Part shown: positions 1 to 485 of the stretch, piece after piece
How the letters are laid out: every line of letters starts with the position of its first letter
Numbering within the stretch: the stretch's first letter is position 1
Origin: Escherichia coli
Lineage (GTDB): Bacteria > Pseudomonadota > Gammaproteobacteria > Enterobacterales > Enterobacteriaceae
NCBI RefSeq assembly: GCF_003334785.1
Contig: NZ_QOWV01000087.1
Length of the DNA stretch: 485 bases
Reading direction: 5' to 3' (one strand)
Position numbers and translations under genes: made by a program
The notes under the pieces: generated by a model
Database searches by the model: none
What the model saw: the letters and a program-made list of their open reading frames with translations, nothing else
What the model was told of the DNA's origin: nothing

Positions 1-33
1 GTGTTGACGAACTCCTGCCATGGAACGTAGTAC

Positions 34-396
34 TCACCAATAAATAAGCGTCAATACGGTGCTCCGTTGACGCTTACTTTCATTCGCCCGGTAGCATGAA
101 CCATTATCCGTCAGCCACTCCACTGGAGACGCCGGAAGCTCGCTGCCAAAGCGGCGTTCCACTACTCCCAGCATGACGTCCTGTACTGTTTCACTGTCGA
201 AGCCACCCGTTGTGACCGCCCAGTGCAGTGCCTCACGGTCACAGCAGTCCAGCGCGAACGTGACCCGCAGTTTTTCTCCGTTATCACAGCGGAACTCGAA
301 CCCGTCAGAGCACCATCGCTGATTACTTTCTTTCACAGCCACTCTGCCGGTATGTGCCCGTTTCGATGGCGGTACAGCGGGTTTTCGCTCAAGCAA
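34..396 (-). pseudogene. insD: Internal fragment of an IS2-type (IS3 family) transposase OrfB/InsD, integrase-core (rve/DDE) region. Intact as a 120-codon ORF but truncated relative to the full-length transposase of about 300 aa, so most likely a non-functional relic.
   Basis: The translation [105 protein letters not shown] is near-identical, with a handful of substitutions, to the middle of E. coli IS2 InsD as I recall it. It contains the IS3-family motifs W-x-x-D (D codon at 304..306) and D-N-G-S-x-Y (D codon at 106..108). The glutamate of the DDE triad and everything C-terminal to it are absent, and the last 15 residues ([14 protein letters not shown]) are read from unrelated flank. The annotated start is a TTG (394..396) with no Shine-Dalgarno-like sequence upstream, and the frame stays open upstream to the window edge at 485. 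Confidence 0.85.
45..76. other. Perfect 10-bp inverted repeat (TAAGCGTCAA, 12-nt spacer, TTGACGCTTA), a potential stem-loop or palindromic protein-binding site; function unknown
   Basis: Read directly: 45..54 TAAGCGTCAA is the exact reverse complement of 67..76 TTGACGCTTA. Inside the spacer, CGG (57..59) can pair with CCG (64..66), leaving a 4-nt loop TGCT. On the minus strand the stem is followed by TTTATTGG, a modest T-tract, and it overlaps the 3' end of the transposase-fragment ORF (stop at 34..36). Confidence 0.45.
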
Positions 397-409: not shown

Positions 410-463
410 GTAACCGGCTCATTTAAACCGTCTGGTCTGTTTCCTCCGGCTCTACAAAAATAA

Positions 464-485
464 TGTCCATCATTTTTAATGGACA
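464..485. repeat. 7-bp inverted repeat TGTCCAT / ATGGACA around CATTTTTA, in an AT-rich tract at the window edge
   Basis: Read directly: 464..470 TGTCCAT and 479..485 ATGGACA are reverse complements, separated by 471..478 CATTTTTA. It may continue beyond the window. Confidence 0.4.

Follow-up and report, generated by a model that had tools for sequence, protein, structure and literature searches.

Three insertion sequence pieces meet in the 485-bp stretch of Escherichia coli DNA analysed here (hereafter, the window): the right end of ISEc47 (positions 1–77), an internal fragment of an IS2-type transposase gene lying on the minus strand (78–409), and the left end of ISCro1 (410–485). In a megablast search of complete E. 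coli genomes, all 485 bases were found at 100% identity in two chromosomes only (NZ_AP022177.1 and NZ_OZ547038.1), and thousands of further records gave partial matches breaking sharply at 77/78 and 409/410. The matches break at these two points because, as the annotation of both full-length matches shows, separate insertion sequence pieces meet there. No sigma-70 promoter was found in the window by a promoter scan, and no Rfam covariance model matched either of its strands at E ≤ 1.

The window opens inside a gene. Plus-strand frame 3 is open from position 3 to 44, with bases 1–2 completing an Arg codon, and stops at TAA 45–47, at the base of a stem-loop spanning 45–76, just as the original prediction had described. 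That prediction took the frame for the tail of a plus-strand gene whose body lies upstream of the window, and the wider context bears this out. In both chromosomes that match over the full length, a 1,614-nt CDS annotated as ‘IS66-like element ISEc47 family transposase’ stops exactly at window base 47; upstream in NZ_AP022177.1 frame 3 remains open across 547 codons, with no in-frame stop just ahead of the window, and the CDS translates into 537 amino acids without an internal stop. The peptide visible in the window corresponds to residues 524–537 of this protein, TnpC. The gene (tnpC 3′ end, 1–47, plus strand) is thus identified by annotation, by its domains and by its coding bias. TnpC scores 450.5 bits on NCBIfam model NF033517 (cut-off 180; profile positions 4–385 of 387) and carries the Pfam domains LZ_Tnp_IS66, zf-IS66, DDE_Tnp_IS66 and DDE_Tnp_IS66_C (together PF03050, PF13817, PF13007 and PF13005), the DDE_Tnp_IS66 match covering model positions 1–283 of 284 at E = 3e-97. 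The last of these domains finishes at residue 530, within the window, where VDELLPW marks its end; the LLPW motif is present in all relatives examined.

A frame of 14 codons is of little weight by itself. By our estimate 14 stop-free codons arise by chance with a probability of (61/64)^14, or ~0.5, so that the proof had to come from the extended sequence. Further to the open reading frame upstream, the comparison with ISKox1 is informative: over the last 80 codons of tnpC, third codon positions account for 34 of the 45 nucleotide differences, and the codon changes divide into 32 synonymous and 6 non-synonymous (5 and 2, respectively, in the 14 codons visible in the window). Judging by these substitutions, frame 3 is under coding constraint and purifying selection. 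Taken with the 547 open codons and a transposase that is both annotated and verified as a family member, this makes it vanishingly improbable that the frame is an accidental opening at the window edge with no gene end behind it.

ISEc47 is an element of the IS66 family. In NZ_AP022177.1 (locus L001) it measures 2,541 bp and carries tnpA, tnpB and tnpC as three adjacent or overlapping plus-strand CDSs (L001 3622–4056, 4053–4403 and 4434–6047). TnpB reaches 119.1 bits on NF033819 (cut-off 50); the first ORF falls below the cut-offs of the IS66 TnpA models (66.8 vs 74 and 61.9 vs 150 bits), and its assignment as tnpA is therefore weaker. Members of the family have imperfect terminal inverted repeats of 20–30 bp starting with GTAAGCG (PMC11946415), generate 8-bp direct repeats by target duplication (PMC11946415, PMC6778807), and encode three ORFs in the order tnpA-tnpB-tnpC together with a DDE transposase (PMC12888890). 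When ISEc47 is set against the classic members of the family (IS66, IS679), no defining feature is seen to fail, the 8-bp duplication being observed for the composite that contains it. Bases 1–77 are 100% identical to annotated ISEc47 right ends carried by E. coli and by an IncC plasmid of Salmonella. Of the named relatives the nearest are ISEc23, 95% identical over the last 300 nt of the element, with the last 33 nt and the 30-aa C-terminal peptide unchanged, and ISKox1, ~81% identical, with its stop codon equally placed 30 nt from the tip. At the other end of ISEc47, a direct repeat, CTAAATTAG, occurs twice (L001 3582–3590 and 3599–3607, 8 bp apart) just upstream of the tnpA start at 3622, and may act in regulation or as a binding site.

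The last base of ISEc47 is 77, where the element finishes in ...CGCTTAC, the GTAAGCG tip read inward. This boundary is drawn because matches break there, because the flanks that follow identical ends are unrelated, and because of the tip itself. The 33 nt from 45 to 77, which form the right terminal inverted repeat (IRR, plus strand), do not vary among the ISEc47- and ISEc23-type copies that Salmonella, E. coli and Shigella plasmids carry, and in five other records unrelated DNA directly follows the identical 33-nt end. Read inward from 77, the IRR is GTAAGCGTCAACGGAGCACCGTATTGACGCTTA. At L001 3537 the element begins with GTAAGCGTAAAGCCAATGCCGTCTG..., and when the left repeat (IRL, taken for comparison as GTAAGCGTAAAGCC...) is aligned with the inward IRR (GTAAGCGTCAACGG...), 17 of 30 positions match, including positions 1–8 with the GTAAGCG tip and CCGT at 19–22. 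The tnpC stop codon lies inside the IRR, 30 nt from the tip. A transposase gene that runs into the terminal repeat is common in insertion sequences. What is particular to the window is that the neighbour of ISEc47 is the IS2 fragment, not host DNA, and that the element is the left-hand half of a bigger composite.

Two blocks of this right end, TCAATACGG (51–59, plus strand) and CGCTTAC (71–77, plus strand), were invariant in a first comparison of 14 related right ends, taken from plasmid and chromosomal records and ranging from ~67 to 100% identity; the second block also agrees with the family tip described in the literature (PMC11946415). We infer that TCAATACGG is the putative transposase-binding part and CGCTTAC the putative cleavage end. 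Bases 1–47 supply the last 14 codons and the stop of tnpC, bases 45–77 constitute the right repeat with which ISEc47 ends at 77, and the chief role of the latter would be to serve as the end recognised and cut by the transposase. To our knowledge, IS66 transposition is poorly characterised biochemically.

The stem-loop noticed at the stop codon lies entirely within this repeat. Fold prediction and a repeat search agree on a perfect 10-bp inverted repeat, TAAGCGTCAA (45–54) and TTGACGCTTA (67–76), enclosing a 12-nt spacer (55–66). The right arm together with C77 makes up the outermost 11 nt of the ISEc47 right end, and the left arm is the inner part of the IRR overlapping the stop codon; the structure arises because the inner repeat TAAGCGTCAA can pair with the 10 nt that precede the terminal C. 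As plus-strand RNA the hairpin folds at -17.0 kcal/mol (z = -3.28, with 1 of 200 dinucleotide shuffles as good) and as minus-strand RNA at -19.8 kcal/mol (z = -4.86, 0 of 200), the folded RNA adding four inner pairs to the 10-bp arms.

We compared this palindrome across IS66-family right ends. Since TCAATACGG was invariant in the first 14 ends, it was used as a search anchor, and later scans, being selected on it, offer no independent evidence for that block. A second scan took one genome per species and held TCAATACGG and CGCTTAC fixed, leaving the positions that complete the stem free. As we estimate that ~140 matches would be expected by chance (16 fixed bases, ~600 Gb over both strands), matches were kept only with an LLPW-type TnpC tail upstream, which left at least ~20 distinct genuine ends; the matches listed came mostly from one Pantoea genome. 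All 10 pairs of the stem are present in the ISEc47/ISEc23 type and, among the matches listed, in two Acerihabitans element variants, where the loop reads CCCAGAG or CCCTGAG in place of TGCTCCG; a Serratia plasmid element, also among the matches listed, has 9 of 10. ISKox1 retains 8 of 10, and its two uncompensated changes (the equivalents of G48C and G69A) leave no stable hairpin (MFE -3.4). Only 3–6 of 10 pairs are formed in ISEc8, ISEc22, ISKpn24, ISCro1, a Pantoea element present in >80 copies, and others among the matches listed. The fixed features of the right ends compared are the two sequence blocks, with pairing between the arms being variable.

The original prediction read the hairpin as terminator-like, closing the gene. 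Hairpin 45–76 does resemble a Rho-independent terminator in being a G+C-containing stem-loop placed directly 3′ of a stop codon, and it is stable, with the plus-strand energy and z-score given above. The weak T-tract that the prediction pointed to is also real: 5 of the 8 bases after the stem are T in this window (CTTTCATT, 77–84). However, this tract does not belong to the same element as the hairpin, as only C77 lies in ISEc47 and 78–84 are IS2 DNA. Elsewhere the bases that come after an identical end read GCATGACA, GTATTAGT, ACATAAAA or GAACGTGA, with 1 to 4 T per 8 bases at these four plasmid sites; as the flanks after identical ends differ, the U-tract is not encoded by the element. Even here the run of T is interrupted, its longest stretch being 3, and a consensus terminator scan called no site at 45–76 on either strand. 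Further to that, most relatives in which the gene ends alike, including those among the matches listed, have lost the stem with no compensating change. The hairpin differs from Rho-independent terminators in being a transposon end, without an element-encoded U-tract and unconserved among homologous gene ends, and Rho-independent termination of tnpC transcription at this point is, in our judgement, improbable. Recognising the ISEc47 end for what it is avoids a false terminator call at the end of a transposon.

The palindrome could also be read in the other direction, as a terminator on the minus strand that stops outside transcription entering ISEc47 antisense to tnpC. This reading has the merit that its T-rich tail, TTTATTGG (the complement of 37–44), is inside the element, that the minus-strand fold (-19.8 kcal/mol, matched by none of the shuffles) is followed by UUUAUUGG, and that the tail recurs in ISKox1-type ends (GATAAATAA). 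Against this, the consensus scan does not call the site, the corresponding tails are not T-rich in Acerihabitans (...CCTGTTGAA|TAAGCG) or Serratia (...TCACTC|TAAGCG) among the matches listed, ISKox1 retains the tail while having lost the stem, and the AATAAA in question is also constrained as Asn-Lys codons. We hold this to be just as improbable as termination of tnpC. A promoter at the end was considered as well: an outward -35 box, TTGACG (67–72), might form a junction promoter where IRR and IRL meet. The idea was dropped because the sequences at the -10 spot, CCAATG or GCGTAA (0 or 8 bp between the ends), do not, on inspection, resemble a -10 box.

A further proposal is that the palindrome is a selected structure of the right end, an inverted second terminal motif that modulates transposase binding, the choice of end or a hairpin step on single-stranded DNA. 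In its favour, the left arm TAAGCGTCAA agrees in 9 of 10 positions with bases 2–11 of the ISEc47 left tip (TAAGCGTAAA), a stem with 9 or all 10 of its pairs occurs with unrelated loops in at least three TnpC clades (the ISEc47 type, Acerihabitans and the Serratia plasmid element), and both arms switch together in close relatives within Acerihabitans. The recurrence among clades, together with a fold that goes well beyond the shuffles on both strands, is also what speaks against regarding the palindrome as a by-product. On the other hand, it is absent from most lineages among the matches listed, including the active-looking Pantoea element with 6 of 10 pairs in its >80 copies, and its recurrence could reflect shared ancestry or an exchange of ends between elements. 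One partner of every pair, moreover, falls within or beside a block kept invariant, or nearly so, for other reasons, and compensatory change is thus unscorable; what the comparison yields is the presence or absence of pairing. We rate selection for the structure as unlikely.

The most economical account would be that the DNA is selected as a recognition and cleavage end for the transposase, the palindrome being a lineage-variable property of this particular end and probably a lineage-specific by-product or accessory feature. Across IS66 lineages the right-end palindrome appears to be recurrent yet dispensable. We conclude that bases 1–77 are almost certainly the tail of tnpC and the right end of ISEc47, with a palindrome that is probably a by-product or accessory feature and not a dedicated terminator. 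As such the feature is already known, being the annotated tail of an IS66-family transposase with its terminal repeat; the tail itself is of very little import, coming from a common enterobacterial insertion sequence that is already annotated. The internal palindrome of the IRR goes unmentioned in the papers on the IS66 family cited here (PMC12888890, PMC11946415, PMC6778807).

In Acerihabitans arboris (L119, L120, L122, L127 and L128), closely related TnpC tails of a single genome precede ends with either 10/10 or 4–5/10 pairs, the two arms switching together, which suggests that whole end modules have been exchanged between elements or that the stem has been gained and lost repeatedly. A single genome of Pantoea stewartii (CCUG 26359, L023–L114) holds >80 copies of one IS66-family right end, many of them at contig ends, a large expansion of the insertion sequence.

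Beyond the ISEc47 boundary, positions 78–409 on the minus strand belong to a dead internal fragment of the orfB of an IS2-type (IS3 family) element, identified by annotation and by the IS2 TnpB profile. It is annotated as a DDE transposase pseudogene at 70–405, ‘incomplete; missing N- and C-terminus’, corresponds to positions 102–215 of the 301 in the profile, and shares 99.4% identity with intact IS3-family elements that many plasmids carry. The longest mechanical ORF of the window, a 120-aa minus-strand frame at 34–396, is part of this dead IS2 orfB fragment; as it crosses the 77/78 junction into the ISEc47 IRR, its last ~14 codons are meaningless, a junction artefact and no true gene end. 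In another record (NZ_CP104788.1, L016 1435–5182) a related IS66-family element sits inside the same IS2-like element, ~160 bp from the junction seen in the window. Similar arrangements occur in >12 genomes, and IS66-family elements seem to insert repeatedly in the IS2-type transposase gene.

The third piece, the left end of ISCro1 (410–485, plus strand), another IS66-family element, is identified by annotation, by its TnpA profile and by its IRL, which begins GTAACCGGCTC at 410. The tnpA ATG lies at 463, and the encoded TnpA scores 295.8 bits on NF038385 (cut-off 150). Just after this start a 9-pair stem, TGTCCAT.../...ATGGACA, occupies window positions 464–485 and overlaps the ATG; TTATTTTTGT comes after it on the minus strand, where the scan of the window called it as terminator-like, with no other such site. 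It could occlude the tnpA start on the plus-strand mRNA, or act as a stop for outgoing minus-strand transcripts.

The three pieces belong to one larger unit. In NZ_AP022177.1 the block from the ISEc47 IRL to the ISCro1 IRR measures 5,572 bp (L001 3537–9108) and carries the 332-bp IS2 fragment as its cargo. It is flanked on both sides by GCAAGGTC and lies between yceK and mdoH; in NZ_OZ547038.1 the corresponding block (L002 2090–9108) is flanked on both sides by ATTTGATG and interrupts yegP. In the latter chromosome a 1,447-bp ISEc45 element (IS110 family) has inserted in the ISEc47 tnpC (L002 4412–5858); otherwise only 2 nt distinguish the two composites. When the empty sites were reconstructed with one copy of the respective 8-mer, each was found in ~5,385 E. 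coli genomes at ≥80% coverage, the best matches being 100% identical over all 400 bases. The 8-bp duplications are seen at the outer ends of the composite, the right flank of ISEc47 itself being the IS2 fragment. Such duplications at two chromosomal loci indicate at least two transpositions of the composite as one unit, with the ISEc47 left end and the ISCro1 right end serving as its ends, and this implies that one transposase can use the ends of both elements. The TnpC proteins of ISEc47 and ISCro1 are 51% identical, and the heterologous pair formed by the ISEc47 IRL and the ISCro1 IRR matches at 16 of 30 positions, much like the cognate pairs with 17 and 18 of 30.

Compound transposons such as Tn5 and Tn10 are bounded by two copies of an insertion sequence. 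The composite is similar to these in having moved as a unit by way of its two outermost ends, here with the 8-bp duplication of the IS66 family. Unlike them, it is bounded by different members of that family in direct orientation, and its cargo is a dead IS2 fragment. One may speculate, with little expectation of being right, that selection maintains the palindrome as a recurring module of some IS66-family right ends, acting in end recognition or as a block to inward transcription, and that two IS66 elements with 51%-identical TnpC jointly mobilise the DNA between them. For specialists in mobile elements, the recurrent palindrome and a two-member composite that has moved to two or more chromosomal sites are of modest value.

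A rearranged remnant of the composite is found on plasmid pWP7-S17-ESBL-04_2 of the same strain as NZ_AP022177.1 (L015 4960–5030), where IS1203 abuts window base 59 and so cuts the ISEc47 IRR between window positions 58 and 59, within the loop of the hairpin. About 3.4 kb away on this plasmid, adjoining a second IS1203, are the first ~510 bp of ISEc47 in inverted orientation. The plasmid copy was considered as a third insertion site and set aside as uninformative, its ends having been rearranged by IS1203 and its flanks being unmatched (GCTTATCC vs AAGCCATT); the arrangement suggests an IS1203-mediated rearrangement of a plasmid-borne composite.
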